64,000 nucleotides of DNA, taken from contig NC_057736.1 in NCBI RefSeq assembly GCF_004010195.1, forward strand, positions 17,991,535 through 18,055,534. Reading direction: 5' to 3'. The position numbers and the translations under genes are program-made. The notes under the pieces were generated by a model, which did not search any database, was not told where the DNA came from, and saw only the letters and a program-made list of their open reading frames with translations. The stretch comes from Chiloscyllium plagiosum. Taxonomy: Eukaryota. Below, in pieces: positions 22,170-64,000 of the stretch; position 1 is the stretch's first letter; the number at the start of each line of letters is the position of its first letter.

Positions 22170-22370
22170 CTATTGGTTAGGAGGATCATTTTCATAGATA
22201 CATTCTTCAGACTGTACATTTATGGAAAATGTCTCATTTATATAAAAGGGCTCCATGTGTTTCATATTTACATATGCCTCCACTACGTGTCGCTCAGTTG
22301 TGCCAGTCGAAGAAGTAAGCTGAGGGGTAACTGCTGTGATGTTGGGTGACGAGGAAGCCAGGGTAACACT
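22170..22370 (-). CDS. BTLA: BTLA-like gene A, cytoplasmic exon 2 (tyrosine motifs YVNM, YINE, YEND)
   Basis: cctttccag|AGT acceptor, phase 0; SVTLASSSPN...EAYVNMKHMEPFYINETF...ECIYENDPPNQ then TAG overlapping a TA|GTGAGT donor. IYENDP matches the BTLA IYDNDP Grb2 motif. Confidence 0.8.
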   Translation of the reverse strand, partial: SVTLASSSPNITAVTPQLTSSTGTTERHVVEAYVNMKHMEPFYINETFSINVQSEECIYENDPPNQ

Positions 22371-22644
22371 CTGGAAAGGATCAAACATAAAAATATTATT
22401 GGATAAATATACACAAATACATTACTCAGTGGATGGATATACCACTAGGGCTTGATGGTTTTCTATAAAATGCCTCAACAGTGAATCAACCTCTCTCTAA
22501 TGATCAAATTCTTACTAATACTTGATAATAAACATTTATCTTTCAATCACTTTCACTAAATGATTTCTTCACTATAAAATTGCTGTTTGTACGAGCTTGC
22601 TGTGTGTCAATTAGCTGCTGTAAATAGTAGAATATAGAATTGTA

Positions 22645-23390
22645 AACCACCATTTCTATCACTTTCAACAGGATGTCACAACCAAACACATCTTCCCCTT
22701 CCATTCCTTGTCAACTTTCTGCAGAGACCATTCCCTCCAGGACACTCTAGTCCACTCCTCCTCCATTCCCAACATCGCCTCATTCACCCACAGCACCTTC
22801 CCTTGCAATTGCAGAAGGTATAATAATTGCCCATTTACCTCCACCCTCCTCACTATCCAAGGCCCCAAACATACTTTCCAAGTGAAGCGGTGATTCACCT
22901 GTTCTTCACTCAATCTAGACTCCTGAATTTGCTATTCACAATGCCGTCTCCTCTACATTGGGGAGACAAAATGCAGTCCGGGCAACCCCTTCACCAAGCT
23001 CGAAGCTCATTTTCCCATTGGGAATCCTGCAGCCTCTCGGATCCAGCATTGAGTTTCACAACTGTAGAGACTGATTACGCCTTCCATGTTTTTTACCCAC
23101 CCCACACTCACTCTTATTATGACAGGGGCTGCTTCTAGTACAGTCACCCATTCGTACATGCTCCTCAGCCTATTATCACATTATATGAGTTGCATTCAGC
23201 ACAGCTAACCCCTTTCTCACTCTTACCTTTTATTATCTCCCATCCGTCTCCACTTCAGATTCAGTATAAATACCACTTTGTCCTGGCTATTGTCAGTTCT
23301 GATGAAGAGTCACTGGACTCAAAATACTAACTCTGTTTTATTCCCACAGATCTGCTAAGTTTCTCCAGCAACTTCTGCTTTTGTTTCAGT
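22645..23390 (+). mobile_element. Degenerate Penelope-like element
   Basis: FCRDHSLQDTLVHSS...FPCNCRRYNNC homologous to the copies at 31500 and 48400; decayed hammerhead motif at 23299. Confidence 0.8.
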
Positions 23391-25285
23391 TACTGTAATT
23401 CACGCATGACAACAGTGCCGAGACTTCAAAAACACTTTACTATCTGTAAACCACCTTACGATGTTCTGAAATCATGAAAGACCCTATAATAAGCATAAGT
23501 TCTTTCTTTTATGGGGCTTTCAGTTCAAGCTGGCCAGAACAATAAACACAAATTTGACTCTAATTTACCTGACTCTAACCTTCTGCTATTGCAATGGAGG
23601 TGAATGGAAACCTAGTCTGAACATCTGCGGCTGTTGCAATAAAGAGTTTATATCTGAGATGTCCATCACCTACCTTTTCCCACTAGAAATATTAGATGCT
23701 AAGAGTATGTTTTCACTTATGGGAGAGACAAGCACTCAGGCAAAACAATTTCAAAATAAACGAGTCTCTCGTTTAAAATGGATTTGAAGAGATTTTCTTT
23801 TCTTTCAGAGGTTTAACCTTTGGAATTCTCTTCTCGAGAGAACAGGAAGGCAGATTCATTGAAAAGTTTTAAGGCTGACTTAGATAGCTTGATTAACAAG
23901 AGAGTCAAGTGTTTAATACATAGACAGGAAGATAGAAACAAATTACCGCAGATGCTGGAATCTGTACTGAAAACAACAAATGCTGGAGATCACAGTGGGT
24001 CAGACAGCATCCACAGCATCCACAGAGAGAGAACAAGCTCATGTTTCGAGTCTACATGACTCTTCACAGGAGTAGAGTTGGGGTCACAATCAATTAGCCA
24101 TGATCTTAATAAATGGCAGAATGGGGAAAGGCTTACTCCTGCTCCTAATTTGTATGCATGTTTATTGCTATTTCCATTTTATTTTTGCTGTTGTGAGACA
24201 TTGCTGTGCACAAATTGTTTGCCATGTTTCCTACATTAGAACAGTGAATACACTTCAGAAGTATATCATTACTGTAAAGTGTTTTGTGTTGACTCAGGAT
24301 GACAGAGGAATTACATAAACGCAAGTTAATTCTTATGATAAAAATTCAGTCACAGAGAGATTGCTCAGCTTTAAACTCATTTGAACAGAAAAATCACTTC
24401 AAAAAGCAATAATAATTTATAATCTAAGACTAAAACATATGTAATTAACCTGGTTGAAATTATATTCCCAGCAGTTACCCAAAAAGGGCATATCCCTGAA
24501 GTTTTATTGCTCACTGAAAGGAAGAACTACATTTCAATAGCACCTTTCACCACTCAAACACCCCAAAGCCATTTGCATCTAATTACGTACTTTTCAAGGG
24601 AACTCCAGATTCTATTTTATTTGTTCACTGTAAATAACTACCATTTTTGTAATATGCAATGGAGTATTTACATTATATTAAATAATCTGAATTATAAATA
24701 CAAGGAAGCCTCAGTGGTGAACATCAGGAGGCATCTAATCTGGGAGCTCTAGTGGTGTGTATATGCAATAACAGAACCATGGTAGAAATTTACAGGCAGG
24801 AATCTAATTAAGGGTCTTGCATTGTTTAGAAATCAAAATAATGGTCTATCTGGATTGAGTAACAGTCTGGAATCCAATGGTAAGGTGCAAGAAGTTTATA
24901 CTTCAAGTCAAGATACTGTGGACTGAGTTAGATGCTAAAATCTAATTGGGTAGCTTTTCTGACAGTGGGATGGGGTGTTGAATTTATACATTGAATGAAG
25001 ATACCTGGAGAGTTAAAGGCTGGAGGGTTGTGAATCTTTGGAGTCCTTTCACCATAGAGCCGTGAATGCTCAGTCATTGAGTTTTCATCATTACAATCAT
25101 TACAGATTGTTTGGCACAATAAGAATCAATGAATAAAGCAAGAAGGTAGATCACTCATGATCTTATTGAAACAGGTTCAAGTGGTGTTTGCCACCAACCC
25201 TTCCATCCCTCCCATCGTCACCCTGCAATTTCATACATTTGTACATTTTTCTCTCGAATGATGCCTCACATGTCACCACAGTTAC

Positions 25286-25329
25286 CTTTACTTGGGCTCT
25301 TTGTCTTCTCAGCGCCAACTTCCGTTTTT
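25286..25329 (-). CDS. BTLA: BTLA-like gene A, cytoplasmic exon 1 (basic juxtamembrane)
   Basis: gctttttaaag|AA acceptor (phase 1), EKRKLALRRQRAQVK, AAG|GTAACT donor (alternative in-frame donor CAA|GTAAAG ends at 25292); phase 0 fits the next exon. Confidence 0.75.
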
Positions 25330-25439
25330 CTTTAAAAAGCAAATCAACAAATAGTATCAATGCACATGGCAACAAATCAGCTATGTATTTATAGTAATGT
25401 TGATAAATGAGTGTCCTCTTCTGCTGTGCGGGTGCTTAC

Positions 25440-25556
25440 CTCGACAGTATAGCATGATACAGACTATCACCACCGACAGAGGCAGAATGCTCAAAAAGTA
25501 CCATTTATTTGTGGTTTCAGTGTGTTCAACTGGTATTAAGGGAGCATCAGAAGCTT
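25440..25556 (-). CDS. BTLA: BTLA-like gene A, stalk and transmembrane exon
   Basis: gtttttcag|AA...CGAG|GTAAGC, 117 nt, phase 1-1; EASDAPLIPVEHTETTNKWYFLSILPLSVVIVCIMLYCR resembles the BTLA TM (W...LLPL...C). Confidence 0.88.
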
Positions 25557-27109
25557 CTGAAAAACACACACTGTGCATGAACAATCCGTATAGGACATGA
25601 ACAATGTATAATATACCCATACAAGCAATTTTTCTCACCCAATGTTCTGTTACCAATTTCTACTCTGTAGACATTGTTTTTGATTTGATGTTCTCTGTGT
25701 GTCTCTCTCATATAGACTCAATGATATGGGACATAAAAGTTTTTTGTTATAATTTTTGCTAGCCAAACAGCCCCTTTGATCTCATCAACACAAAAGGTAA
25801 TGATGCCTGTGAATGTGACCGTCTCCATTTCAGGCACCTAGTGTCAACATTAAACACTGCCATGTCAAATCAGGATAATTATAAATATTTTCTAATAGAC
25901 CTGTTCAGAGGCACAATTACATACTGCTGGAGCGGATGGGTCTTGAATCTCGGCATCCTGGCCCAGGAGTAGGGATATCACCACTGCACCACAAGGGCCC
26001 TCCAGCTATGTGGAGAGAGTAAAGTTCCTTGTATTCTTTCCCTTTGATGCGCTTAAGCCCACTTTGGAACTGTTTCCCATTTAATGCATCAATGGGAACT
26101 TGGACCCTAATTTGATTCTGTTCAAGTTCCTTTCGAGTCCTACAGAGGCAAATCAGATAATTTCAATGAGCTGGGAACAACTATTGGAACTAGGCATGTA
26201 AAAAACTTCTGATTTGTACATAAAACACTCCCAGACTTGATCCTAGATGAGGCTTCTCTGCACCCTTGACATCTGGTTTTCCTGTATCTAGGATGTCCTA
26301 TCAGGCATGCACAGCATTCATGAAACCAGGTTGAATACAGAGTGTAAAATGTTCAAGCTGTTAAGAAAGGAAAATAAAGAAAATATATTGCAGGAGAAAA
26401 TGGAGAAACTTTGACATTAAAACCTGAAGGAAAACAAATTGGAATAAAATTAATATATCAATAAACAGATTATATAGGCTTGTGAGGAGGAGGAAAAACA
26501 AATATCTCCATTGAAGCTGTTGCCAGAAAGCAAGGTGAATGAAAAAGAGTTATTAGAAAATCTGAGATTGGATGGAAAAAGTAAGTTTGGAAGGGAGAGA
26601 AACAAACTTCTCATGTCAACAATTATTAAGTGAAAACGTTGAAAGCATAACTTCTTGGAGTGCCCTTACGTTAAAGTAGAAAACAATGATAATTTAGTTG
26701 CAATGAATAAGGTAATAGGAGTTATATCTGATTCACATGTTACATTAGTGTTGAACAGATATTTACTAACTAATCTGTTCAAAGATATATGACACACCTG
26801 TGGAGTTGGATGGGCACTTGAATCCAGATCTCCTGCTTTAGAGGTACAGATACTACCACTGCACCACAAGATTCTCCTGTGTTAGTGTAAAACATTATCT
26901 GCACCTCAGTGGTCCTCAAGTATCATACACTCAGCCTATTCACTCTTTAAATCAATGTGCATTCAGGGTATCCTGAGGAACCTATGCTCAATGCTGAACC
27001 CAGGGTAGGACAATCCTACTCTTTGCATTCTTTTCAATCAAGAAAAGGAAGAGAAAGACTACATTGTGTGTTCTTGGGGTTTAATAATGAGGTACATTCA
27101 AATAATTAC

Positions 27110-27439
27110 CAGTCACATTTACAACAATGGAATGACCCCTTGCCATCACATTTCCTTGAGAAGCTTCACATCGGAATGTGCCACTGTCGCTGTAGTTGAG
27201 GGCGGCGATCTTGTAACTGACAAGTAAGTTTCCTTGCTGGTCATGGTTGAAACTAAGCCCATTTGTAGACACCGGGTGACAATGGTGTGCCTCAATTATG
27301 CACCAGTTTACTACAGGCTTTTGTTCTTCACCAGTACAGAATTTAACTGTACAATTTAGTGTTAGACTATCTCCCACGGTGAGGTGCAACGTAGATCGGG
27401 GATAGATTACTCTCACTGGACAGGCACAATTTCCATTTC
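27110..27439 (-). CDS. BTLA: BTLA-like gene A, Ig domain exon
   Basis: tatttcag|GA...ACTG|GTAATT, 330 nt, phase 1-1; C...GDSLTLNCTVKFC...WC......C...DSGTFRC...GHSIVVNVT reproduces the BTLA 6-Cys pattern (human C..GDPFELECPVKYC..WCK....C..NGSYRC..SHSTTLYVT). Confidence 0.92.
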
Positions 27440-28145
27440 CTGAAATAGAGAAGCTGTAGGTCAATCTATGTACCATTTCTACACTGCCCTCTCATTACAT
27501 TCTATGTATTTTTTAATACTATACAACAGCCCTCCAGAAACAATACCTACTCTTTAAATGTACCTTTGGATTTGAACTTGAGAGTTTCTGATATTGATTC
27601 TTCCAGAGGGAGTTGGTGATATCAAGGAATGTTGGCTCCCGGTCATGTTTTCATGCAGTGCTCTTGAGTAAGAATGAAAATTTCCAAAGAGCGACTGAAT
27701 ATTTTCCTGTTTGCATTTAAATCAATTATTCTCATAAATCAACAAAAGGTTCCAGAATCATTACAGTTTCAGCAATTTTTCTCGTCTTATCTCAGTGGAT
27801 AGCACTCTGATCTCTCAGTTACAGTTGAACTGTAGTTCTGGACTCAGGAATTGCTGCATTGTTGGAGATGCAGTCTTTGGAGGAAACATTTAAAAGAGGC
27901 CTGTCTGCTTCCACTGGTGCAGGCAAAAAAAATTCTTCATGCCATTCAAAGAACAGCAGATGTGTGCTGCCTGGTATCTTGGCCAATATTCAATACAAAG
28001 ACAACACCTTGCCATTATCCTGTTGCTGCTTATTGGACTTGCAAATTAAGATTGTGACAACATTTCAAAAGTACTCCTTTCACGAGAAAAAAACTCCTTG
28101 CTTCATCCTGGCTTTAGAAATGTAAGTCCTTCATTCTGACCAATT

Positions 28146-28300
28146 AGAGTCATAGAGTCATAGAGATGCACAGCATGGAAACAGACCCTTCGGTCCAACC
28201 CGTCCATGCCGACCAGATATCCCAACCCAATCTAGTCTCACCTGCCAGCACCTGGCCCATATCCCTCCAAACCCTTCCTATTCATATACCCATCCAAATG
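28146..28300 (-). mobile_element. Short CR1 LINE 3' end
   Basis: agagtcatagagtcatagag tail; close match to the reverse complement of 7115-7260. Confidence 0.85.
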
Positions 28301-29326
28301 ATCTGTAACCCACTATTCTGAATTTCACTTACTTATACCATTTGCTTGGTTTGGATTCATGTTTATGCTGTCCAGCACCAATTCAGTTTCTGAATTTCCA
28401 TGAGATAAGCCATGGCATTTAGAGTTCCATTGATCACATGGCTGTCTCTGTCAGACATTGACTTAAATTTCATTGCAATGAAATTATTATTCCATTGCAA
28501 TGCTGTGATAATGGAGTGTGGCTGGAAGTACCATCATTAGTCATGAGGTTTTTTATAAAAGACCCCATGGAACTATTTAAGGATGAGCACAGATGTTCGA
28601 GTGCCATGTCTGAAATATCTTCTTCACTCCACGTCACATTAGCGACATGCTTTTGTATAGTATCTTTTATGTCATAAAACATCCTGAACTGCTTCACAGG
28701 AGTATTCTCAAACATCATTCGGTGCCAATCCACAAGAGGAGTTTTGCCTTCAAGCTATGCATGGTCCTGACTTGGAACTATATTGCGGCTCCTTCACTGT
28801 CACTGTGTTCAAGGCCTGGAACTCCCTTCCTAACAGCACTGTGAATATTGTTAAGAAAAATTTATAACTTCAAGTTTGAATTATAATTTTGCACCATTTG
28901 TGTTAAGAAGGTGAAAACATGGTTGTTGATTTTTAGAGATTTTTTTGTGAGTTGGGATTTTGGTGTTGAGAAGTCTGGAAGTTTGTTTCATTTACTTTTT
29001 TTTATAAACTTGATTTGAAGAGTTGGAGGGTGGAGAGTTAGCTGCTTAACAATTATAAAAATATTATACTGCTCATTAGTGACCAAGTCCATTGATGCAG
29101 AGAAATAGAACAAAGCAGAAAGTATGCACATACCAGAAATGGTATGCTGAATTTAGGGAAATTCATAGTGAGATTATTTGCAGTTTGTTTTAGGTGTCTC
29201 AGGGAGACACTAGATGAAGGAAATAGGGCATCTAAAAAATGAATAGAAATTAGCTGACAGGAAATGGTTGCAATAGTGTGAGCTTCTTGACATCTGTAAC
29301 CTTTTACTTTGTCCAGTGAAACACAA

Positions 29327-30388
29327 AGTTTGTGCGAAGATTTGTAGTTCGGGTGCTCGTTGTTGTGGTTCTGTTCACCGAGCTGGAAGTTTTTGTTGCA
29401 AACATTTCATCCCCTGGCTAGGCGACATCATCAGAGCTTGGGAGCCTCCTGCGAAGCGCTTCTTTGATGTTTTCTCCGGTGTTCGAATTCATGTTGCTTG
29501 TTGTCTGCGTGTGTGGCTACTAAGGATAGCTGGTTGTGTCGTTTCGTGGCTAGTTGATGTTCATGTATGCGGATTGTTAGCTGTCTTCCTGTTTGTCCTA
29601 TATAGTGTTTAGTGCAGTCCTTGCATGGTATTTTGTACACTACATTCGTCTTGCTCATGTTGGGTATCGGGTCCTTCGTTCTGGTGAGTTGTTGTCTGAG
29701 CGTGGCTGTTGGTTTGTGTGCCGTTATGAGTCCTAGCGGTCGCAGTAGTCTGGAAATCAGTTCCTAGATGCTCCTGATGTATGGTAGTGTTGCTAGTCCT
29801 TTTGGTTATGGTATGTCCTCGTTCCGTGGTCTTTCTCTTATACCTCTGCTGATGAAGTTGCGCGGGTATCCGTTTTTGGCGAATACCTTGTATAGGTGTT
29901 CCTCTTCTTCTTTTTGCAGTCCTGGTGTACTGCAGTGTGTTGTGGCCCTTTTGAATAGTGTCCTGATGCAACTTCGTTTGTGTGTGTTGGGGTGGTTACT
30001 TTCATAGTTTCGGACTTGGTCTGTGTGTGTGGCTTTCCTGTGTCCTCTTGTAGTGAATTCTCCGTCTGGTGTTCTCTGTACCATCACGTCCAGGAATGGG
30101 AGTTGGTGATCCTTTTCTTCTTCTCTCGTGAATCGGATTCCTGTGAGCGTGGCGTTGATGATCCGGTGTGTTTTTTCTTTCAACGGCACACAAACCAACA
30201 GCCACGCTCAGACAACAACTCACCAGAACGAAGGACCCGATACCCAACATGAGCAAAACTAATGTAGTGTACAAAATACCATGCAAGGACTGCACAAAAC
30301 ACTATATAGGACAAACAGGAAGACAGCTAACGGTCCGCATACATGAACATCAACTAGCCACGAAACGACACGACCAGCTATCCTTAGT
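29327..30388 (-). mobile_element. Penelope-like retroelement (RT C-terminus and GIY-YIG endonuclease) with inverted segment 30177-30388
   Basis: LPFLDVMV...KATHTDQ...KNGYP and NVVYKIPCKDCTKHYIGQTGRQLTIRIHEH; the GIY-YIG segment recurs on the plus strand; hammerhead-like motif at about 29401-29437 (minus). Confidence 0.93.
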
Positions 30389-31142
30389 TTGCACTTTTCT
30401 TGTGTGTTAAGTGTTTTATCTTTTGTCTTAAAAGTACACTGGCAGCCTCTTGTGAGTGTATTCAGTAACTGATAGCTTAAGAAAAGCCAGGTTTCACCCT
30501 AGGATTTCACTTGATAAGTATTAAAATCAGCTGAAATCCTACAAATTAACCAATACCACTTAGACTGCAATGCTTCAAAAGGTGATTCACCATAACCTTC
30601 TCAAAGACAATAATAACGTGAAATAAATATTGGGTTAGACAGTAATCCCCACATTACGTGAATGAATAAATGGAAAAACATGTTCGAGATGGCCAAACAT
30701 GCTTGGTCAGGGAGTAGGCTTTATGGAGCATTTTAAAGGAGTAAAGAGAAATGGAGATGTTTAAAGATGGCATTTCAGAGCTTAGGGCCCAGCGGACAAG
30801 GGCATGGTTGCTATTGATGATTGCCAATATGTTCCAAAAATCATCATTGCACAAGAGCCAGAGTTATAGGACCACTGAGATCTGTAAGGGTTGTCAAGAA
30901 AGATGAAGTTACAGAGTCCAGGTAGGAGACAGGCCATGCAGAAATTTGCAAACAAGTGTGAGAATGCTTAAAACTAAGTGATGCCTAGTTCCAGAGCCCA
31001 TGTAGCTCAGTAAGTGCAGCGCTGGGGGGTGAGCAAGATTTGGTTGGAGTTAACTGCAGAGTTTTGGATGAGTTCAAGTTTATGGAGGATGGTGGCTCGG
31101 AGTCCCGTCACTGGAGTAGTGGAGCAGAGATGAAGATGGAGG

Positions 31143-32235
31143 ATGGGAGGTCTGCAGATGCTGGAGATCAGATTTGAGAGTGTGTTGCTGGAAAAGCACA
31201 GCAGGACAGGTAGCATCTGAGGAGCAGCAAAATCAAATTTCGGGCAAAGGCCCTTCATCAGGAATGAGGCAGGAAGCCTCGAGGGTGGAGAGGTAAATGG
31301 GAGAGGGGTGGGGCTGGGGAGAACGTAGATGAGAGTGCAATAGGTGGATGAAGGTAGTGATGAAGGTGATAGGTCAGAGAGGAGGGTGGAGCGGATAGGT
31401 GGGAAGGAAGATTGAAAGGTGGGACAGGTCATGAGGACATGCTGAGCTGGAAGGGTGGAACTGGGATAAGGTGGGGGGATGGGAAATGAAGAAACTGGTC
31501 CACACCCCCTAAGAAGCCACATCCCCTTCTGGCACCTTCCCCTGCCACCGCAGGAATTGCAAAACCTGCACCACACCTCCTCCCTCACCTCCTTCCAAGG
31601 CCCCAAAGGAGCTTCCACATCCATCAAAGTTTCACCTGCACTTCCACACGTCATTTATTGTACCTGTCGCTCCCGATGCGGTCTCCTCGACATTGGGGAG
31701 ACTGGACGCCTTCTTGCAGAGCGCTTTGGAGAACATCTCGGGACACTTGCACCAATCAACCCCACCGCCCCGTGGCCGAACATTTCAACTCCCCCTACCA
31801 CTCTGTCGAGGACATACAGGTCCTGGCCCTCCTCCATCGCCATTCCCTCATCACCCAACGCCTGGAGGAAGAATGCCTCATCTTCCGCCTGGGAATACTT
31901 CAACCCCAGGGCATCAATGTGGACTTCACCAGTTTCTTCATTTCCCCTCCCCCCACCTTGCCCCAGTTCCAACCTTCCAGCTCAGCACCGCCCTCATGAT
32001 CTGTCCGACCTGCCAATCTCCCTTCCCGCCTATCCACTCCACTCTCCTCTCCTACCTCACCTTTACCCCCACCCTCCTCTGCCTATTGCACTCTCAGCTA
32101 CCTTCTCCCCAGCCCCACCTCCCTCCCATTTATCTCTCCACCCCCAAGGCTCCCAGCCACATTCCTGATGAAGGACTTTTGCCCGAAGCGTTGATTTTCC
32201 TGCTCCTTGGAAGCTGCCTGACTTGCTGTGCTTTT
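31143..32235 (+). mobile_element. Penelope-like element with inverted terminal repeats (31143-31500 minus, about 31925-32235 plus)
   Basis: VIYCTCRSRCGLLDIGETGR (GIY-YIG-like), LIFRLGILQPQGIN; a hammerhead motif in each terminal copy. Confidence 0.9.
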
Positions 32236-36964: not shown

Positions 36965-37524
36965 NNNNNNNNNNNNNNNNNNNNNNNNNNNNNNNNNNNN
37001 NNNNNNNNNNNNNNNNNNNNNNNNNNNNNNNNNNNNNNNNNNNNNNNNNNNNNNNNNNNNNNNNNNNNNNNNNNNNNNNNNNNNNNNNNNNNNNNNNNNN
37101 NNNNNNNNNNNNNNNNNNNNNNNNNNNNNNNNNNNNNNNNNNNNNNNNNNNNNNNNNNNNNNNNNNNNNNNNNNNNNNNNNNNNNNNNNNNNNNNNNNNN
37201 NNNNNNNNNNNNNNNNNNNNNNNNNNNNNNNNNNNNNNNNNNNNNNNNNNNNNNNNNNNNNNNNNNNNNNNNNNNNNNNNNNNNNNNNNNNNNNNNNNNN
37301 NNNNNNNNNNNNNNNNNNNNNNNNNNNNNNNNNNNNNNNNNNNNNNNNNNNNNNNNNNNNNNNNNNNNNNNNNNNNNNNNNNNNNNNNNNNNNNNNNNNN
37401 NNNNNNNNNNNNNNNNNNNNNNNNNNNNNNNNNNNNNNNNNNNNNNNNNNNNNNNNNNNNNNNNNNNNNNNNNNNNNNNNNNNNNNNNNNNNNNNNNNNN
37501 NNNNNNNNNNNNNNNNNNNNNNNN
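36965..37524. other. Assembly gap (N run)
   Basis: Run of n. Confidence 1.
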
Positions 37525-37978: not shown

Positions 37979-40449
37979 CCTGTCCATTCCTGAGTAAAGT
38001 TTCTGTAATTGCTATGATATCCCAGTCCTATGTTCCTAACCATGTCCTAAGTTCATCTGCCAGGCCTCTTGCATTGAAGTAAATGCAGTTAAATTTGTCA
38101 GTTCCACCTCGTACAAATGATTGTTAAAAATTGCAACTTTTAAATTCAGTGAGTTGGGAACATAACTTGATTAAAAGTTTTAGAACTTGCTCAATCTCTA
38201 ATTATAAATTCCTGCATATCCTTGTCCAACATCCTGCCCCATATCTTGGTCAATATTGCATTCCTCTGACTCTGGCTTTTTATGCAGTCCCTCCTGACCT
38301 TTGCTCACTGTTCTAGCCTAGTCTTCAACAAATTGGGTTTAATTTCTGATATCTCCTGAAGTCAGTCCATTACTTTCTCTCCCCTTTTAAAACCTGTTGA
38401 GTAAATCTTTCTTTCCTGACCCAATCAGCTTTTCAGCATGCCTATCTCAGAATCATCAAGAAATGTCCTTTCATATTAAACCTCCTAAATTGAAGTAAGG
38501 TTACATAATGTGGCTGAGAATCGTGACATTCAACCACCACATAAATCTTCTCACATTCCAACTCCTCATCCCAAACCTGTCCCATTCCTGTATTATCTTC
38601 TCATGTCTGTATTAATTCTCCTCTTAAATGGATCAAATACCCTGTAATCCACACACACCCCAGGATGGTTTGTTTCACAGTTTCACCACACATTCTTCAT
38701 ATTTGATGACTCTGTACTTCTCTCATATTTATGTATCCTTATTCTAAATTCATCTAACAGTTGAAAACATATTTCATATTCACCAAATCTCTTCATAATT
38801 TTAGAGCTGTCTTATGGAAATCAGCAATGGCCCTTATATAGTCTTCAATGAATCACCGTGCACAGGCTTGAACTAGAATTGGTGACACTTGAGATTTTGA
38901 TGTTCACCTTTATATTGCAGTGTGGTGTGTCAATGAGACCCTTACGTCAACCTCAATATCCTTACTGCCTGTTGTATTAAAAAATACACTCCCATCCATT
39001 AACTGCAAGAAGCTACTCCTGGTAGTTCAGTGAATAAAAGAAAAGAAATTTCTTTTCATCCACGAAGAAACCAACAATGCCTGATATTAATAGATTGCTG
39101 CTTAACACCACTCGAAGCGCTCTTTGAGACCTAAACTCTCAACGTTAACAATACAACTTCAAGCCTGATGAAGTTTGGACAGTTCACAGGAAATCATAGA
39201 TAATCGTCTCATGAAAGATTGGATACAAAAGAACCTTGGTTTGGATTTTCTACAGTATTTATGGGTAATCCTAAATTACATCCAGAAAACTTGCAGCAGA
39301 TTAAAAACTAAAAATCTTTAATTTTGTTTTATTCATAGGATGAGGGTTTTGCTGGATAGACGAGCATTTATTGCCCATCCCAAATTGCCCAGAGAGCGGT
39401 TAAGAGTCAATGATGTTGCTATGGGTCTGGAGTCACATATAGGCCAGACGCGGTAAGAATGGCAGTTACCCTCCCTAAATGACATTTGTGAATCAGATGG
39501 GCTTTCCAGCAATTGGCAATGGATTCAAGGTCATCATTAATTCCAGCCTCTTAAATTCAGATTTTATTGAATTCAAATTCTACCATCTGTAATGTTGAGA
39601 TTCAAACCCCAGTCCCTAGAACATTACTTGGATTTCTAGATTAACTGTCCACAAGGACATCGCCTCCCAGTTTGTGATTGTGGTTACTCACAATAGGCCA
39701 TGATAGCTAATGGGTCAATGTCCAATCCACAAATGCAAAGGAGATACCACAATGATACACGCTACTATTCCCAACACAATGATCAGCTTCAGCCATTTAA
39801 ACTCTAAATGTAAATGTCCGCTGTTTTTCTACATTTCTATCAGCAATACAATTTTAAAGGAAGGATTTGAATGAGAACATGACTAAATTCAGTTTGCTTT
39901 TTTGCTCTCCTCTCTTACCCTCTCTAACTATTTGTTTACAGTGCTCCATCTAAGGCTGCAATACTGTGGAAAGATTGCTCTCTGGAGCCAGAAGTGATCA
40001 TCACCATCAGGAGGAGAAAAAAAGAACAATCAGAGGGAAAAAAAAATCTTATCCCAGCACAACTGATCAAATCAATGGCAAAAATAGGAAATAAGTTACA
40101 AATTTTAACAGCGTTAAAATTGTGGACACTTCCATCGTCATTGTAAAGGTCATAAATTTACTCTTTAAAATAGTAAAGAGCCTGTCTTTGAAGAAACCTT
40201 TTCCAAGGTTGCTCTCCCGGTCTAATGAGCCAATCAAGTAAGGGAATTAGGATTCTAAACATTCCCACATTTAAACCTATCATTATTAATTCTTAAAATT
40301 GTAAGCTTGGTACTGTCAAAATTTCTCATTAGATCTGATGTGTCATTTATACACTATCATTTGCAGACACTACAATTCAAAAATAATTTTAAAACATTAA
40401 GTTTAAAAAGGAAACTTTATATTTTAAGTAAGTTATTCATCAGTCCTAC

Positions 40450-40513
40450 CTTGTATTAGTGAGATTATCAGGAGACATTGAAGACAAACCTGCTGCAATA
40501 TGCTGAACCACAT
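40450..40513 (-). CDS. BTLA: BTLA-like gene A, signal peptide exon
   Basis: accATG context; MWFSILQQVCLQCLLIISLIQ(G); CAAG|GTAGGA donor, phase 1, matches the Ig exon; in-frame TAG upstream. Too short for the ORF track. Confidence 0.85.
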
Positions 40514-40559
40514 GGTTCTGAGTAAATTGCACAATCTAACACGGGGTTCTCACTGCTAT

Positions 40560-47970: not shown

Positions 47971-48219
47971 NNNNNNNNNNNNNNNNNNNNNNNNNNNNNN
48001 NNNNNNNNNNNNNNNNNNNNNNNNNNNNNNNNNNNNNNNNNNNNNNNNNNNNNNNNNNNNNNNNNNNNNNNNNNNNNNNNNNNNNNNNNNNNNNNNNNNN
48101 NNNNNNNNNNNNNNNNNNNNNNNNNNNNNNNNNNNNNNNNNNNNNNNNNNNNNNNNNNNNNNNNNNNNNNNNNNNNNNNNNNNNNNNNNNNNNNNNNNNN
48201 NNNNNNNNNNNNNNNNNNN
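47971..48219. other. Assembly gap (N run)
   Basis: Run of n. Confidence 1.
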
Positions 48220-49990: not shown

Positions 49991-50060
49991 ATGATCCCTG
50001 TCAAGCAGTTGAGAGTTGCCATTGGCTTGTTCCTCCTCCTGGTTTTGATTCAATTACAAG
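49991..50060 (+). CDS. BTLA-like gene B, signal peptide exon
   Basis: MIPVKQLRVAIGLFLLLVLIQLQ(G/E); CAAG|GTAAGA donor, phase 1. Ends in CAAG| like the gene A leader exon. Confidence 0.88.
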
Positions 50061-54522: not shown

Positions 54523-54705
54523 ATGTGGAGGTGCCGGTGTTGGACTGGAGTGGACAAGGTCAGAAGTCAGGCAACTCCAGGTTGTGGCCTAACAGGTTTA
54601 TTTGAAATCACAAGTTTTTGGAGCGCCGTTCCTTCATCAGGGAACATGAGGTTGTGATTCCAAATAAATCTGTTGGACTGTACCTGGTGTCATCTGACTT
54701 CTGAC
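54523..54705. mobile_element. Short palindromic Penelope-derived element with 14-bp TSD
   Basis: TSD cttctttctccaag at 54509-54522 and 54706-54719; same family as 33917-34139. Confidence 0.8.
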
Positions 54706-55930
54706 CTTCTTTCTCCAAGGCACAGCCAGCCTGCCACTATTAAAGTCACTCCATCTGTTAGTTGCAGAGTAGCAGCAGCATTCTCACATAATAATCTCTC
54801 TCCCTGCACTTTCAGATTTAGTTGGTCTTCTCCAGTTCCTGGTCTATATGCTGGCCCTCAGCAACATTATTTGTAAGCCAAGGTTCAGTTTTCACACATA
54901 GTTCATAACTTCACTCAACGTAAGAACTGGTTGCGTGCTTGTGCAACATCACATCCTGAATGAACCATAACAACTTACTATCGAAAGGTCAATTCTATAT
55001 TTTCGAACTTCAGGATTTCCACAGTAGTCATCAATTCCATCTTATGATCAGGTAGAATCCAATGGTGTATAACCTTGATTTGACTTTCAGCCAAGCTTCA
55101 AACCACTTTAATTATCTCCCCATCATCTCCCTTTGCCCTTCTAATTTCTATATGTTTGTCACCTCCACACCTGAATTTTTCAAACTCTTCTCATTTGCCT
55201 TTGAAGGTTCCAATTCAGGCCACACCTCCATCTTATCCCATACTAAGTCCTGCTCTCCCAGTGTCTTCATCAATATCTATTGTCAGTTCTTTCTCCAAAG
55301 TGTATTGACTGCAAAATTCTCCTTCTCAATCATATTTCCCTTCAGGGTAATGCTCTAACTTATCACTGAAACCTCCTGCGACAGTAGGCACCAACTCACA
55401 CCTTGTACTGTTTGCACCCCTCATTTATCGTGTGTTAACAATCCACGGTAAAACCATCAGAATGGAGGTTACCTCTGTGGCTATGTCCTCGTGATGGTCA
55501 GTCTTGATGATCTTCTCAACTTACAGCAATGCTCCTCCAATTTTCACTAAAGAAGTGCATCAGTGCAACAAGTTTAGATCTTTCAGGAAGAATCTCTTCT
55601 CTCATATATTCCTTCTCATTCCACTCAACGGTCCCCGTACTTGGAAACAACCACAATAACAACAGCTTGTATTCATGTGGAGCCTTTAGCGTGGCAAGCC
55701 ATTCTATTGTAGTTCACAGGAATGTTATCAAAGAAAATTTGACACAGAGTCATGGAAGGAAATAATGGTTAGGTTGGAGACGGACATAAGGCTTTAAGGA
55801 GTGTCTAAGTGGAGGAAAGAGAGCTTAAAAAAAGAACCAAAAGCTTCAGTGAGGGAGGGGATTGAGGCCTGGACAGTTAAAAGGGATGGTCACCAATGCA
55901 TGATTACGAACAGGATTTTCAGATGCAGAC

Positions 55931-56045
55931 TATATATATAGTATATGAATAAATATATATATAGTGTATGAATGAATATATATATATATATACATATTAT
56001 ATATAAGTATTTAGAATATATATAAAATATGTATATTTATATTTG
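55931..56045. repeat. (TA)n-rich microsatellite
   Basis: tatatatata runs. Confidence 0.9.
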
Positions 56046-56194
56046 TTACCTGTCAGCAGCTATTCTCTCTTTATCCCATGGTAACAGCCTTTGACTATAA
56101 GGATTTCAATTATCTTGGCCAATTTTGAGTGGCTAATATTTTATGTTGATTGTGAGTCACATCTAAATTTTAATACAGAGACAAAAGTCCATAA

Positions 56195-56470
56195 TCATAG
56201 AGTGATGGATTCATACAGTACAGAAACAGACCCTTTGGTCAAACCAGTCCATGCCGAACAAAATCCCAAACTAAGCTAGTCCCACCTGCCTGCTCCTGGC
56301 CCATATTCCTCCAAACCTTTCCTATGCACATATCTATCCAAATGTCTTTTAAATATTGTAATTGTTAGCATCTGCTACTTCCTCAGGAAGTTCATTTCAC
56401 ACATGAATCACTGTCTGTGTAAAATATTTGCCTTATGTCTTTTTAAAATCTCTCTCCTCTCAGCTTTAAA
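56195..56470 (-). mobile_element. CR1 LINE 3' end
   Basis: Homologous to the reverse complement of about 7000-7260. Confidence 0.75.
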
Positions 56471-56584
56471 ATGGATTAACAATAACAGAACTGTGTTTTA
56501 TTAAGAAAAGATTGTTTGTGCCTTTCGCTTGATTACAATTTTGAAATTATACAAATATATGATCTTGTTTGTTCTCTCTTTCAG

Positions 56585-56923
56585 AAAACACTACATCCAC
56601 CTGTTCAGTGAGAGTAGGATACCCCAGAGCTAAGTTAAACTGTAGTGTTGGAGACAGTCTAACACTGAATTGTACAGTTCTGTTCTGCCCTCAAGATCTT
56701 CTTGTGACTTACTGGTGTAAGATACTTATGAACACCTGTCAGCGACTGAATAGTTCAAAGAATCAGCAGCTCAATTCACATTCTTCTGAAAACACTGAAA
56801 GAATGTTACTAGTGGTTTTCACAGTCCCTTCTGTTACCTTGGCCGACAGTGGCAGATATTCCTGTCATGCTCAACAAAATGGTGTGGAATCACAGGGACA
56901 CTCGATTATTGTGAACGTATTTG
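56585..56923 (+). CDS. BTLA-like gene B, Ig domain 1 exon
   Basis: ctctctttcag|AA...TTTG|GTAAGG, 339 nt, phase 1-1; TC...VGDSLTLNCTVLFC...YWCK....TC...DSGRYSC...GHSIIVNV (BTLA Cys pattern). Confidence 0.92.
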
Positions 56924-57416
56924 GTAAGGATTGCTTTCTGTATAGACATACCCGTTTAGTTCTGTGAACATTGTGTTGATCAAGGTATGGCAGTTAGCAC
57001 AGTAATCTCATTTCAGGAAACTAGTACCAGCATAAAATGTTTTCAGGTCAGGTACAAAATAAAGCTCCTTTACATACCCCAGTTAAGCACTCTGACACCA
57101 CATAGTGGTAATTCATTCATGATGTACATGTAAGCAACAGGTCAATGCAAGACTATTAGATCAGGGCGAAACCAAAGGATATTACAAGACCAATGGGTCA
57201 CTCACATCACACAAATGAAATATTTAAATTTAGTTTGATCAGATTTTAAGTAAAACGTTGCATAATTTCTAACATGTTTATTTCATTATGGGATGTAGAT
57301 GTTGCTGTCAAGACTGGAATTAATTGTCCATTCCAAGTGATCCAGATGCAACTTCAGAGGGCAGTGAAAAATCCACACATTCTGCTAAGGGTAGAATTTC
57401 TCGTTGGGATTAAATG

Positions 57417-57890
57417 GAGTCATAGAGTCATACAGATGTACAGATGAAACAGACCCTTCAGTCCAATTCGTCCATGCTGACCAGATATCCCAACCCAATC
57501 TAGTCCCATCTGTCAGCACCCAGCCCATATCCCTCCACACCCTTCCAATTCATATAACCATCCAGATGCCTTTTAAATATTGCAATTGTACCAGCCTCCA
57601 CCACTTCCTCTGGCAGCTCATTCCACATACACACCACCATGAAAAAGTTGCCCCTTAGGTTCCTTTTATATCTTTCCCATCTCACCCTAAACCTATGAAC
57701 TCTAGTTCTGGAATTTGCCCACCCCAGGGAAAAGATTTGGCTATTTACCCTATCCATGCCCCTCATTATTTTATAAACCTCTATAAGGTCACTCCTCAAC
57801 CTCTGACACTATAGGGAAAACAGTCCCAACCTCTCCCTGTAGCTCAAATCCTCCAGCCCTGGCAACATCCTTGTAAATCTTTTCTGGACA
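57417..57890 (-). mobile_element. CR1 LINE 3' part
   Basis: gagtcatagagtcat tail; DLIEVYKIMRGMDRVN...WNELPEEVV. Confidence 0.9.
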
Positions 57891-58663
57891 TTTTATCACA
57901 AGAACAACCCCTGCCCAACAGGTCCATTCTTGTACCTTTCTGCTCCACATGGTAGGTAAAAGACTTACTATCCAATTGAATGATGCTTGGTCATCAGCCA
58001 AATAACCTTTTCCCCCTGATTTTGGATATTTTTATATCAAATATTTAAAGAGGATTCTAAAAAAAAATGATCCTTTTGAATATCTCTATGATTTTCTCCA
58101 GGTTTCCACATAGCAGTATCATGGAAACTTATCAGTTCCTGCAGACTCCAGGCCAATTTTGGAGCCTGAACTATGGGACTTGGAGACATATTTAAGCCAG
58201 ATCAGATAAGGAGGTGATTTTTCCTGTCCTCAAGGATTTCACTAAAGCCGTTAAGTTTTTATGATCAATATTAATTTGTGTCTTTTACAGTTGTTTTACT
58301 TACAGTTGGATTCTTTTTAAAACCAGAATATAAATTCTCAAAAATCCAAAGAACTGTAGATGCTGGAAATCAGAAACTGCTGGAGAATTTCAGTAATATC
58401 TATGGAGAGAAAGTAAATTTAATGTTTTGGGTCTGGTGACCATTCTTTAGATTCTCCACAGATGCTACCCAGGCCGGCTGAGGTTTTCCAGCATTTTCTA
58501 ATATTTGTATAATTTCTCAAACTGCCATTGTGGGATTTGAACTTGATTTTCCAGAACTGGCTTTATAGATTATGAGTCTATAATGTAATATTACAACTAA
58601 GGCAAGTAATGAAATTATAGAAATATATATATAACAGAATGTCCTGATTGTTCTCTCTTTCAG

Positions 58664-59008
58664 AAAATACAAAAACTGCCTGCTCTCTCTCGATACTGCA
58701 CCAGAGGGCAGTTTTTAATTACAGTGTTGGAGATAGTCTAACCTTGAATTGTACAGTTCAGTTCTGTGTTAATGAAGTACAACTGCCTGAGGCTCACTGG
58801 TGTAAGATGTATGGAAATCTTTGTCAGCCAGTGACTGGAAGGACTCATTATCCAAACATAAGCTATTCTCTTCAGGACAGGGAAATGAAGATGTCAGTGA
58901 TACACACTGTTACTCATGTTGAGCTGAGTACAAGCGGCTTTTACCAGTGTCAAGCAACACAAGGAGCTGTAACCACAGTGGGCCAGCTTGTTCGTGTAAA
59001 TGTGACAG
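58664..59008 (+). CDS. BTLA-like gene B, Ig domain 2 exon
   Basis: ctctctttcag|AA...ACAG|GTAAAC, 345 nt, phase 1-1; AC...VGDSLTLNCTVQFC...HWCK....LC...SGFYQC...VRVNVT. Confidence 0.92.
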
Positions 59009-59329
59009 GTAAACATAGATTTTCTTTGTTTCACTTTATTGAGGTTACTTACATCATGATAGCATGGTCAAGCAGCCAACCGTTCCTCAAGTGACGTGCT
59101 GCTGCTAACCTTGACTTGCACAATGGGTTGACTTGCTATCTACAGCAGTTAGGGCCATTATCTGCCTCATTGCAAAGAGGGCCGAAGAATCCTCAATCAT
59201 CCAACCATAGAATATATTGGAAAATCTTGGAGAAATGACTGAGATAATCAGAGAATGCCTTTTTATAATTTGTTGTTGCGTTCAACCTAATCTAGTCTAC
59301 AATTTGATTTCTTTGAGTACGTTCAAATT

Positions 59330-59645
59330 GCGAAGGAGTTAGATTAAGTAGACATAGAATTATGCACAGAATTTTCCATTGTAGAGGACATAATTTAAAG
59401 GGACACGAGGGCAACTTTTTTACATTCAGGGTCATTTATATATGGAATGAATTCCCAGAAGAAGTGGTTGATGCAAGTACAGTTACAACATTTAAAAGAT
59501 ATTTGGGCAGGTAAATGATTAGGAAAGGTTTAGAAGGATATGGATCAAATGCAGCAAATGGGACTAGTTTTGTTTGGGAAATCTGGTCAGCATTGGTCAA
59601 GATGGAGTGAAGGGTCTGTTTCCCTGTTGTACGACTCTATGACTA
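59330..59645 (+). mobile_element. Degenerate CR1 3' end
   Basis: tggaatgaattcccagaagaagtggttgatgc...gactctatgact tail. Confidence 0.75.
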
Positions 59646-59838
59646 ATCACGAGAAATGTGACAAAACATGAAAGAATAAAAATGATCAGATATTTTAGAA
59701 AAACTCATAAATTTTCCCTTTAAGCCTTGAGTGGTGACTTCAGAATCACGCCTTTGAGTCGGAACTACCTTATTTCCATGGATTTGAGTTTCATTAAAAA
59801 CCCGACTCACTCAATTTACATTGCAGATAAAACAAAAC

Positions 59839-60138
59839 TGGGCAGCACGGTGGCAGCTGGGCAACACAGTGGCACAGTGGTTAGCACTGCTGCCTCACAG
59901 CGCCAGAGACCCGGGTTCAATTCCCGCCTCAGGCAACTGTCTGTATGGAGTTTGCACATTCTCCCCCTGTCTGTGTGGGTTTCCTCCGGGTGCTCCGGTT
60001 TCCTCCCACAATCCAAAAATGTGCAGGTTAGTGTTAGGTGTAGGGGAATGGGTCTGGGTGGGTTGCTCTTTGGAGGATCGGTGTGGACTTGTTGGGCCGA
60101 AGGGCCTGTTTCCACACTGTAAGTAATCTAATCTAATC
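59839..60138 (+). mobile_element. tRNA-derived SINE (HE1/V-SINE-like), near full length
   Basis: ggcacagtggttagcactgctgcctcacagcgccagagacccgggttcaattccc head (A and B boxes); (aatct)n tail. Confidence 0.92.
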
Positions 60139-62715
60139 AAAACTGCAACGCACTAACCGTTTGACCTGGCCATCAGGCAACTGCTTCCTCGGCAGAGTGT
60201 CCTTGCAGAGTGTTCTTCCACCTCCATTCCTTCAATCTCACCACAGCACATTGGCGAACAACAGTCCTCACTTGAACATCAACCCTGGTCTTGGACTAAC
60301 TAAATATCACCTCAGGCTTTCAACTACTTTAGACCAGATGGACACCCATCAACTGCATGCTTCTGCTTAGTCACTTTATGCACAGAGGCAGCCTCAGATC
60401 TTATGCATCAACACAGGATGCTTTAGTTCTAACGTGGATCTTATCACTCTTAACTTGTTTTCATCATGCTCATTTACTTTAGCATTTACCTGGAGCCCAT
60501 CAGTCTCTGGTTGGATAACATCGCTTGCTTAACACACAGGTTCTTGTGTGTTCAGCTACACGCTGTCACTCTCTGCTACTTCACTCTGAATTTATCACAG
60601 TGGGAGCACTGAACAGTCAGTCAGACAATGGGCAGACATGGCACGGGATGGCACCAGGCTTCATCAACACCAGAGCTGCCACACGCACCAGAAGCTTACA
60701 CTGCAAAGCCACTGCATGTTCTTCAAGTAAATACGAACGTGTGAAAGAAATACAGTGCTCGAGACGTCGCGGTTATGAGATTAGAAGTGAAAAATGGAAG
60801 ATTGCATGACCAAATACATCCTGGGCACTGTTCTTTTCTTTTGGAGGACTGTGCACAGTTGCAACTTCCAGGACTGAAGGTTAATGCTGCGAATTATATT
60901 GGCATGCCACTTGCTATGCAGGGACCCTTGGAGTGTGTGCACGGCAGAGAGAACCCTAATCCTGGGACATGACAGACTGGGCACCACATTTTAACTGCAC
61001 ATGCGAAAATTCAGTCCATTGTTTCAAGCTGTTGGTGCAGTCAAACATAAGACAGTCACTAAGAACTTATGTGTAATTTCTTTACCCATAATGTTTAAAA
61101 CATAGGAACAGCTCCCAAAAAGACAAGTTGAGATGAGTAGCATAGACACAGTTAGGGGAAAACTACATAAGCATACAGGATAGGAAGAGTAGAAGTGTAC
61201 AATGGTACAGTCAGATGAAATTGAGCCAAGGACACCCAAGTAGTTCACAAATGCCAGAATAGGTCAGTTTGCTTGATCAGCCTGGTTCTGTGGTGTAGAC
61301 CTGATATTCCAGAAACATTGTCAGATTTATCCCTGATGCCATGTGATGGCAGTGGACTTCTGCAAACTGCAAAAGACCTGTGATGATGACAGATCAACAA
61401 TAGCAATAGAGATCCATTAACAATGAAAAAGCAGTGTTTTATGGCATTATATCATTTGGAAGTCCAATAATGTTTGAATGCTGGTTAAACACTATGAGAT
61501 TGGCTCAGTTGATAAAATTCTTGACTCCGAGGAACAGGTGATGGTCCAAGCCAAACTAAAGCACTTTTAATTCATGCACAGGATGTAATATAGCTTTGTT
61601 GGAGGCACAGATGAAATATTAAACTGACAGTTATAATTCCAATTGATGTTATTACTGTTCAGCTCAAATCTCAGAATGAAACCTGGCTTGTTAGACCCTA
61701 ACTTTATTTTGTTTCAAACTATGGAGGTTAGGTACAGAACACATTTACAAGAGGCTGTCAGTGTGCTTTTAACACAGGAATAAAATTATTCTTAAACAAG
61801 AAATAATAAAATTATCCATGTTACACTAGAGAGAATGAAAGTCTAGAAAGATTTAATTATAGACATCAGAAAAAAGTTGATCTTCACACTACTTTTATCT
61901 CAACAATATGCTTTATTATGATCGATTGTCCCCAGCTCAGGTTAATAAGAAGTAAGTCCGATCCTGACAGGAATCTGGTTGGATAGATCATAACTTCTTT
62001 TTATTTTTGTGGCTGAAATGATCTTTTACTAAACATAAGCACTCAATGTTGCAGTTTTTAGTTTAACAATAAAAATGTTTATTAACAACAGAACTGAAGA
62101 TAAACAAAAAAAAAACCCTGTTCCTGTATTACACAGATTGAAAGGATTTTAAACAGATGATAAAAGTCGAGCACTGTTTATAGATTGAACAGAAACTTGG
62201 CTTTGTATCAGAATCAATGCATCCTGTATAGCTTCCAAACATTGTTACAACTCTAAGAACATCTAACGCTGTACTTCTCGCAAGACCCAGTCCAGCTCAT
62301 TCCCCACAGAGGGAGTGACTTTTTCTTTTTAATACTTTGATGGGCTTAAAATATTTAAAATTTCTACTCATCTGCTGGAACTCCAGATAACTTTTCTTAA
62401 TTATTAATATTATGCTCCTGACTTAACTTCTATTGCTATACTATTCCTGAAACAGCTTCAATTCTTTTGCTAGTTTGTTTTTAAAATCTTTAAAAAACTG
62501 ACTGCATTCCAACATCTCAATCTGGGATCAATCATAACTTCTCAATCTATGATAATCTCATTATGTTAAACTTCCTTTCTTAGGAATACTGCTGGCATCT
62601 TACTTCACTAAAAGACTTCTGAACACCTGATGTGTATCTCTCCCTAGGAACTCTAGGTAACTTCCTCTCTCTTGGAATCATGGGTATTGTAGTTTCAGAT
62701 ACTAATTATTGATTC

Positions 62716-62925
62716 CAAATAAAAACTAAAAGAACTGCAGAAGCTGTAAATCAGAAATAAAAACAGAAATTGTTGGAACAGCTCAGCAGGCCTGGTAGCA
62801 TCTGTAGGAAGAAATCAGAGTTAATAGTTCAGGTCCAGTTCTGAAGAAGACTCACTGGATCCGAAACTATAACTCCGATTTCTCTGCACAGATGCTGCCA
62901 AACCTGCTGTTCTTTTCCAACAATT
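62716..62925. mobile_element. Short fold-back Penelope-derived repeat with decayed hammerhead motif
   Basis: Inverted arms tggtagcatctgtaggaagaaatcagagtt / aactccgatttctctgcacagatgctgcca around ctgaagaag...ccgaaac; relatives at about 51790-51960, 52260-52395 and 58340-58500. Confidence 0.6.
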
Positions 62926-63838
62926 TTTTATAAAATTCTAAATACCCAGACAAACCTATATGCTTAACTTAAAATTCCAAGTAGCCAAACTTGCAGTAAT
63001 TGTTATTAGGATATGTATATACATAAATGTCACAGTTTCATCACACCTTACAATACTTCAGTGAGAACTATCTTCACACTAAAGCTCCCTGCTCACACTC
63101 CAATTGGGACAGTTGCAACCAATTTTCTCATGATGATTTTCTATGTAGTAGATGCTTTAGATGCCTTTTGCTTTTATCGGATGTCTCCCCGAGACACCTG
63201 AAACAACCGCAAACTAAACTTGGTATTACTTTAAACTTTAGAACAAATACCAAGTTCCTAGATTCAGCGATCCAGCTGACCTGCCTCAAACCTCTGGCAC
63301 TCTCACACAAACTAACTCATCTTGGATTGTTTCATTTCTATGCATGTCGAGACTCCAGCCACTCGGTGAAAGTAGGGTTTTATTTGATCTCAAATACACT
63401 GAATTATTTACTCCAATAGTTTAAAACCTCAGTGAAATGCATGTAAAGAGAATAAATCTCCAGATTCTCTGTTATCATTCATAGTGCAAAGATAAAGTGA
63501 ATCTAAACCATGTCACCCTGACTTAATGAATAAAATATAAACTGTAAATTCAACTTAAAGTTACACATTAGCTCTTAACACAACACTCCAATTTGTCTGT
63601 TGTGAATGTAACAGCCCTTGGGTTAGCATTTGACGAAAAATGCGTATGTTGCCTAGTATTCTAGCCCCCTCCTCCTCCTTATGTCACCACCAAAAAACTA
63701 AAAGAATTTAGCATTGATGGTATATTGCTGTGTACGTACTGATGATTGTGGTTGCCTGTACAAGGACAATGACTGGTCTTCATTGTGTTAAAAATTTAAT
63801 ATTTTCTACAATTTAATTTGTTTTTGTGTATCTTCCAG

Positions 63839-63948
63839 AAGGTTCACCAACACATTCTGTGTGGAGGTGGTACAACATCGGCAGATGGGTCGCATTTGGT
63901 TTGATGGCCATGATGCCTATATCATTGTGTATCCTGGGGTGTGGCTAA
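63839..63948 (+). CDS. BTLA-like gene B, terminal exon: stalk and hydrophobic segment with NxxR, no cytoplasmic tail
   Basis: ttgtttttgtgtatcttccag|AA acceptor, phase 1 fits the Ig2 donor; EGSPTHSVWRWYNIGRWVAFGLMAMMPISLCILGCG-TAA (63946-63948). Confidence 0.8.
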
Positions 63949-64000
63949 GGTAGCGACCAAGACAAGATTTTAACACTTCCATTAGTTAATAAAGATATTA

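Follow-up and report, generated by a model that had tools for sequence, protein, structure and literature searches.

Two BTLA-type receptor genes of the bamboo shark and a probable division of the BTLA checkpoint family of cartilaginous fish into brakes and accelerators

BTLA is generally treated as a single inhibitory checkpoint. A paper of Bernard et al. 2007 reportedly names 'multiple BTLAs' in jawed vertebrates in its title, and here we describe two further genes of this family, genes A and B, which lie on opposite strands of a 64,000-nucleotide stretch of the bamboo shark (Chiloscyllium plagiosum) genome, hereafter the window (G000:C27:17991535-18055534, on contig C27). An earlier note, made from the letters of the window alone, had proposed them as a BTLA-family receptor pair of a kind that it did not know to be described. 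This premise of uniqueness was too strong, because of the title just mentioned and because CD160 is already known as a tailless, HVEM-binding relative of BTLA.

Human BTLA carries a Grb2 site, an inhibitory motif (ITIM) and a switch motif (ITSM), the latter two both immunoreceptor tyrosine-based, and the Grb2 site is tied to PI3K/Akt survival signalling (PMC10795259). CD160 is mainly anchored by glycosylphosphatidylinositol (GPI) (PMC13682303), and both BTLA and CD160 use an edge strand to bind the first cysteine-rich domain (CRD1) of HVEM (PMC8558838), with a 1:1 stoichiometry in the case of CD160. A 2026 survey places BTLA among the mammal-specific immunoglobulin (Ig) proteins (PMC13262535). 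Classical paired receptors are clustered with conserved ectodomains, and their activating members are defined by a short tail and an Arg or a Lys within the transmembrane (TM) segment (PMC3533184). Receptors that pair with FcR-gamma are marked by the motif NxxR where the TM segment begins, this segment and a minimal tail being encoded in one exon; for Xenopus proteins the pairing was demonstrated by co-transfection (PMC2413239, PMC6557307). Genes A and B are not described in excerpts of PMC12151841, PMC13262535 and PMC11599192, and our literature searches gave no paper on them among the best-ranked 15-20 of hundreds to thousands of records; supplements were outside these searches, and shark genome papers may list the genes.

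Our analysis indicates that in cartilaginous fish the BTLA checkpoint family has probably diverged into forms acting as brake and forms acting as accelerator. The particular reading we favour, at slightly less than an even chance, is that A and B are non-inhibitory counterparts of shark BTLA, which have kept the BTLA-type outer domain and are missing ITIM and ITSM.

Gene structures and Ig domains

Nine coding exons were confirmed in the window, with AG/GT ends at all junctions and open spliced frames, giving products of 251 aa (gene A) and 287 aa (gene B). Our basis for the junctions is the splice signals together with RefSeq models and the conservation of orthologs, and the products are letter-identical to the bamboo shark RefSeq proteins XP_043573502 (LOC122563612; P0022) for gene A and XP_043573498 (LOC122563611) for gene B, both named 'uncharacterized'. 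The distance between the two ATGs, one on each strand, is 9,478 bases. The exon junctions, the product lengths and the divergent arrangement with ATGs 9.5 kb apart had all been read correctly in the earlier note.

Gene A, on the minus strand, begins with a signal peptide exon (40450..40513; equal to RefSeq P0022 in translation), followed by a BTLA-type Ig exon with six cysteines (27110..27439), a stalk with an uncharged TM helix (25440..25556), a basic juxtamembrane stretch (25286..25329) and a cytoplasmic tail (22170..22370). Two RefSeq isoforms (P0007, P0021) were noted, one without the Ig exon and the other (isoform X2) without the TM exon, which is predicted to be a soluble form. Gene B, on the plus strand, has a signal peptide exon (49991..50060), an outer Ig domain B1 (56585..56923), which by identity is the domain nearest BTLA, a membrane-proximal Ig domain B2 (58664..59008), which by cross-lineage identity is the most conserved one, and a C-terminal exon 4 (63839..63948).

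The Ig exons of A, B1 and B2 have in common the core VGDSLTLNCTVxFC and six cysteines at positions which we take from human BTLA numbering, as had been noticed earlier, although their overall identity is only 38-44%. All six cysteines were retained in 4/4 orthologs of A, 3/4 of B1 and 4/5 of B2. In a PDB sequence search (phmmer) with the gene A Ig exon, the top 4 matches were BTLA, the best being human BTLA with E 5.6e-8, and a profile of 21 relatives against PDB also gave BTLA at ranks 1-4. The AlphaFold2 model of this domain (predicted local distance difference test, pLDDT, 87) matched BTLA at Foldseek ranks 1-10. All three Ig domains are of BTLA type, and the family assignment of the earlier note stands. 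Other searches were less clear-cut: with B1 alone, multi-domain pIgR and VEGFR2 ranked above BTLA in PDB, VIA-align scored BTLA (Z 12.4) and domains of KIT/CSF1R (Z up to 13.4) alike, and the ESM Atlas search gave generic Ig clusters only. The AlphaFold2 model of the whole gene B product had low confidence (pLDDT 57) and was left out of the analysis.

A recent conversion event among the Ig exons was rejected, as their DNA is 59-66% identical, exact runs do not exceed 15 and no unique flanks are shared; for B1 and BTLA the identity is 66% and the longest exact run 10. Across three shark lineages B2 is conserved at 72%, B1 at 54% and BTLA at 53%. A fast B1 together with a conserved B2 fits a ligand-facing domain on a spacer.

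Inhibitory motifs, tails and membrane anchors

The tail of gene A has only 3 Tyr in 83 residues, so that the earlier description as tyrosine-rich could not be kept, while its single Ig domain and TM helix were confirmed. ITIM and ITSM are absent from the gene A tail in 6/6 orthologs. The tail has three YxN motifs (Y218, Y228, Y244), and the last two are retained in all five full-length ortholog tails; the Heptranchias model stops before these sites and is outside this number. Because ITIM and ITSM are gone and YxN is kept, gene A looks, as far as motifs tell, like a BTLA reduced to its positive module.

Searching the genome with B1 revealed a further exon (52% identical) on contig C6, which is part of a protein annotated BTLA (P0027), and the tail of this protein carries ITIM and ITSM. 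An ITIM and an ITSM-type motif were found in 17/17 full-length chondrichthyan BTLA tails examined (the early-ending models P0033, P0045 and P0050 were left out). Thus the inhibitory BTLA is a third gene on C6, neither A nor B. The earlier proposal of A and B as inhibitor against activator or decoy is not supported by this; its paired-receptor logic was borne out in outline, but with the inhibitory member on C6. No further BTLA-like Ig exon was found in the 184 kb of C27 examined.

Exon 4 of gene B encodes a short stalk, the motif NxxR (63874-63885, Arg267), 17 hydrophobic residues, a three-residue end and the stop. The earlier note had described a hydrophobic C-terminus without tail, which is correct, yet it missed the arginine. 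Eight orthologs with this exon were compared, from Hemiscylliidae, whale shark, horn shark, catsharks and Callorhinchus (the Cetorhinus model P0005 is without the exon and was excluded). All eight have an Arg at the start of the putative TM segment and a short or no tail, encoded in one exon, and Arg267 and eight other positions of the exon are invariant among them. Over the 23 residues around the Arg, identity reaches 70-96% among four shark records and 39-57% against the chimaera copy, whose C-terminus is a charged tail such as a GPI signal lacks. The PDB search with this exon gave chance matches only.

A hidden tail exon behind gene B was considered and rejected: the donor-like sequence past the stop is explained by orthologs which read two residues further and then stop. 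An AATAAA (63988..63993, plus strand) follows 42 bases past the start of the stop codon, consistent with exon 4 as the last exon.

A possible partner is encoded in the genome, since a TM exon of the PF11628 family at G000:C12:49769721 matches best in PDB with CD3zeta, which points to an adaptor with a TM Asp, as read from the TM exon alone. A complex prediction of the last exon of gene B with a dimer of this zeta-like TM segment gave no answer (score 0.02, with the alignment not used).

The end of gene B can be read in other ways. It might be a GPI-anchored protein, CD160-like by convergence, that is, a tailless and sheddable two-domain ligand of HVEM or a decoy competing with BTLA, with A co-stimulatory or ligand-only. 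Shark gene B ends 3-5 residues past the hydrophobic run like the proteins of the CD160 group, CD160 itself being mainly GPI-anchored as cited above; the best match of a turtle CD160-like Ig in this genome is B1; and the CD160-like exon beside BTLA is broken here, so B could fill its role. But nine invariant positions across the shark-chimaera distance would be unusual for a signal that is cleaved off, and the charged chimaera tail also speaks against it. A GPI signal should have small polar residues before the hydrophobic run, where gene B is rich in Trp and Tyr. We regard this alternative as rather unlikely, though it is the strongest of those considered. The high conservation, like the charged tail in chimaera, speaks rather for a helix that is kept, and we would hold an adaptor-coupled TM segment to be roughly twice as probable as a GPI anchor.

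With a smaller probability, gene B could be a membrane-anchored but non-signalling ligand or decoy, its Arg serving only as a surface anchor, and A a weakly signalling adhesion-type receptor. This would agree with the lack of a tail and with an Arg which flanks the hydrophobic run, the best 19-residue hydrophobic window starting just past it in 6/7 shark records. However, the position of the Arg matches the published NxxR type, and type I helices do not usually have a conserved basic residue on their outer side.

Origin of the genes and their surroundings

Across sharks, the orthologs of A fall into one clade, and so do those of B1 and those of B2. In a tree of 55 rows and 107 columns A, B1 and B2 group with chondrichthyan BTLA (88/79). 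A clade of shark and bony BTLA excluding A and B was rejected (p-AU 0.023, approximately unbiased test). This rejection and the tree placement suggest that A and B are old duplicates of BTLA which arose within cartilaginous fish, a claim limited by the short alignments. Bony BTLAs form their own clade (96/90), so the BTLA duplicates of bony fish and amphibians arose independently.

Gene B is present in chimaera. Gene A turned up in no group but sharks, among them the squalomorph Heptranchias. The model of the chimaera ortholog of gene B (P0044, Callorhinchus LOC103179522) covers only half of the first Ig domain, and the first cysteine pair is absent from the second. B1 is nested inside shark BTLA in a wide tree (96/97), which a narrower tree does not settle, and BTLA monophyly excluding B1 was not rejected (p-AU 0.077 and 0.186). 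The mean identity of B1 to shark BTLA is 48.8%, against 42.8% between ray and shark BTLA. B1 also tracks BTLA by lineage with an excess of 3.4 points (1/24 permutations), a weak signal as A and B2 against BTLA reach 1/24 too, with smaller excess. The nesting and the mean identities hint at a later re-copying of B1 from BTLA.

From a wide HMMER search came a group of tailless proteins with a single domain; its members in turtle, gecko and emu bear the names CD160 or CD160-like. It might be asked whether gene B is the true shark CD160 ortholog, since it has a tailless end and since B1 is the first match of the turtle CD160-like Ig in this genome (1.7e-11), with BTLA close (6.1e-10). This is very improbable, the least probable of the alternatives considered. 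A clade of B with CD160 was rejected (p-AU 0.017), gene B keeps the cysteine C63, which is present in 0/11 CD160-group rows, and it has two Ig domains with the first BTLA cysteine pair. A separate CD160-like Ig exon, broken by stops and frameshifts, also lies 20 kb upstream of the first exon of BTLA on the same strand (C6:14893.9-14894.2 kb, L040); its best matches are of the CD160 group (E about 1e-5 to 2e-5), with shark BTLA next (3.6e-5).

Unnamed fish proteins (P0127, P0154, P0109 and related, one of them labelled zgc:174945) group with the reptile and bird CD160 (97/94), so CD160 appears much older than mammals. In addition, the models P0057, P0156, P0173 and P0065 fuse CD160-like or BTLA Ig exons to domains which we take to be CD200R-like. 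It suggests that CD160-like or BTLA genes and CD200R-like genes adjoin in some tetrapods.

A and B are on one scaffold in four other sharks, namely Hemiscyllium, Heterodontus (with consecutive accessions) and both Scyliorhinus species, in agreement with the paralog pair proposed earlier; their orientation was read in the window only. RefSeq isoform X2 of gene B (P0019), which is without signal peptide, starts with five residues that map to one site of the window followed by GT (coding end 40225..40237, plus strand, placed from the protein N-terminus). This alternative exon ends inside intron 1 of gene A, about 210 bases from exon 1 of gene A, and the expected number of such matches by chance is 0.005 per shuffle (200 shuffles). 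The same N-terminus is predicted in C. punctatum (P0018). No CpG island was found at the alternative start. The start of gene B inside intron 1 of gene A supports a promoter common to both genes, which is likely, and the co-regulation suggested earlier is probable from these overlapping starts.

The head-to-head layout, the overlapping starts and the linkage on one scaffold in four other sharks might also be expected if A and B formed a heterodimer, with B for binding and A for the tail. We consider this quite unlikely. One-domain and two-domain chains differ in height, no ectodomain cysteine of gene A is both unpaired and conserved among its orthologs, and gene B was found in chimaera where gene A was not. 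The solved BTLA and CD160 complexes with HVEM described above also count against it. Nothing else was found in favour of this idea of the earlier note.

On the left of the pair is a T1R taste receptor gene (window 1766-11661, minus strand, running on into L023) with exons for ANF receptor, NCD3G and 7tm_3. A paralog at C27:15.47 Mb is the closest to it (46%), and the locus is not the main TAS1R/CPTP cluster, which lies on C34. On the right, about 34 kb past the right end of the window, is an MBOAT-family exon (L008:3989-4270, minus strand), which presumably resembles MBOAT1/2. It matches MBOAT7 only weakly (E 0.0027), and an identity of the locus with the leukocyte receptor complex through MBOAT7 was not supported. 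The genome search gave no match of the marker POLR3C, and ATG3-family matches on C12 and C2. The window has two runs of N, of 560 bases in the first intron of gene A (36965-37524) and of 249 bases between the genes (47971-48219), and decayed retroelement-like fragments, identified by eye, are common in the introns.

A further two-Ig gene was observed at G000:C31:25167810-25180620 (L025, L027, L029, L035), with a BTLA-like first domain, a TM lysine and a short tail, and genes of this type were also found in zebra shark, whale shark and chimaera. Judged from its sequence, this gene has the anatomy of a DAP12-type activating receptor. BTLA-like proteins with a TM arginine were also found in paddlefish (P0062) and Xenopus (P0130). 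Together with the C31 gene, they indicate that charged-TM offshoots of the BTLA family recur.

A proposed BTLA-based receptor system and its comparison with known receptors

Genes A and B are a real, conserved and uncharacterised pair, of the paired-receptor kind and built on BTLA, whose key signalling steps we infer. In the reading that A and B are non-inhibitory counterparts of BTLA, the BTLA on C6 would be the brake. Gene B would be the accelerator, signalling via the immunoreceptor tyrosine-based activation motifs (ITAM) of a CD3zeta or FcR-gamma dimer held by Arg267, and gene A would be a co-stimulator or survival receptor recruiting Grb2-type adaptors via YxN. The two would probably be co-expressed and see a ligand related to that of BTLA (HVEM or a pathogen mimic). 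The columns of R42 and H127 of human BTLA, which we take to be HVEM contact residues, are largely retained in A and B1.

Several observations weigh against this reading. Strict NxxR is present in 3/8 gene B orthologs, all of the family of the window's species, and SxxR in the other 5/8. The hydrophobic run in sharks nearly reaches the C-terminus, is only moderately hydrophobic and has a proline, like GPI signals, and the Arg could lie at the membrane surface rather than inside. Only a single zeta/gamma-type exon was found in the genome. The BTLA on C6 is unlinked to A and B, with an outer domain only ~49% identical, and, unlike in LILR, KIR, SIRP and CD200R, there is no clustered inhibitory twin beside A and B, the ITIM-bearing BTLA being on C6. 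In word-based searches, which are weak, A and B were not found in rays, nor A in chimaera. At the column of human BTLA P59, by our assumption another HVEM contact, every row of A and of chondrichthyan BTLA has Thr and those of B have Thr, Ser or Ala, so that HVEM is no more than a candidate ligand of A and B.

We may speculate further on a dispersed BTLA paired-receptor system of cartilaginous fish, absent in mammals, with the brake on C6, B as an Arg-type activator, A as a Grb2-only co-stimulator and the C31 gene as a Lys-type activator, all reading HVEM or pathogen mimics. Early sharks would perhaps have copied B1 anew from BTLA, so that it could keep up with the ligand. As a whole this wider picture is doubtful, and we put it well below the simpler reading.

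The oldest lineage with adaptive immunity holds a canonical BTLA together with stable relatives, from which the brake has been removed and to which activating-type anchors have apparently been added. If this is borne out, checkpoint receptors formed activating twins as natural killer and myeloid receptors did, and the history of the BTLA/CD160/HVEM network is deeper and more branched. For comparative immunologists, A and B are named and testable genes, which are now annotated only as 'uncharacterized'.

Compared with BTLA (PDB 2AW2, 6NYP, 1XAU; P0027 on C6), the common features are the six-cysteine Ig domain and its fold, the layout of gene A in signal peptide, Ig, TM, short exon and tail, and YxN. 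The differences are the loss of ITIM and ITSM in A, the tailless form of B with two Ig domains, and the different contig. CD160 (PDB 6NG9, with its reptile, bird and fish relatives) is like gene B a BTLA relative without signalling tail and with a hydrophobic C-terminus, but it has one Ig domain without the first BTLA cysteine pair, and is separate from B in tree and locus.

The NxxR-type receptors (LILRA, NKp46, GPVI, OSCAR, Fc-alpha-R and Xenopus XFL with TM1) likewise have an Arg at the start of the TM segment, with this segment and a minimal tail in one exon, and several of them have two Ig domains as gene B does. Gene B differs from them in its unrelated ectodomain family, in SxxR in most orthologs, in the lack of a cluster with inhibitory twins, and in its low copy number, stable for a long time. 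The BTLA-like genes of bony fish and amphibians are, like A and B, duplicates of BTLA, and some of them, as in paddlefish and Xenopus, have a charged TM segment as well.

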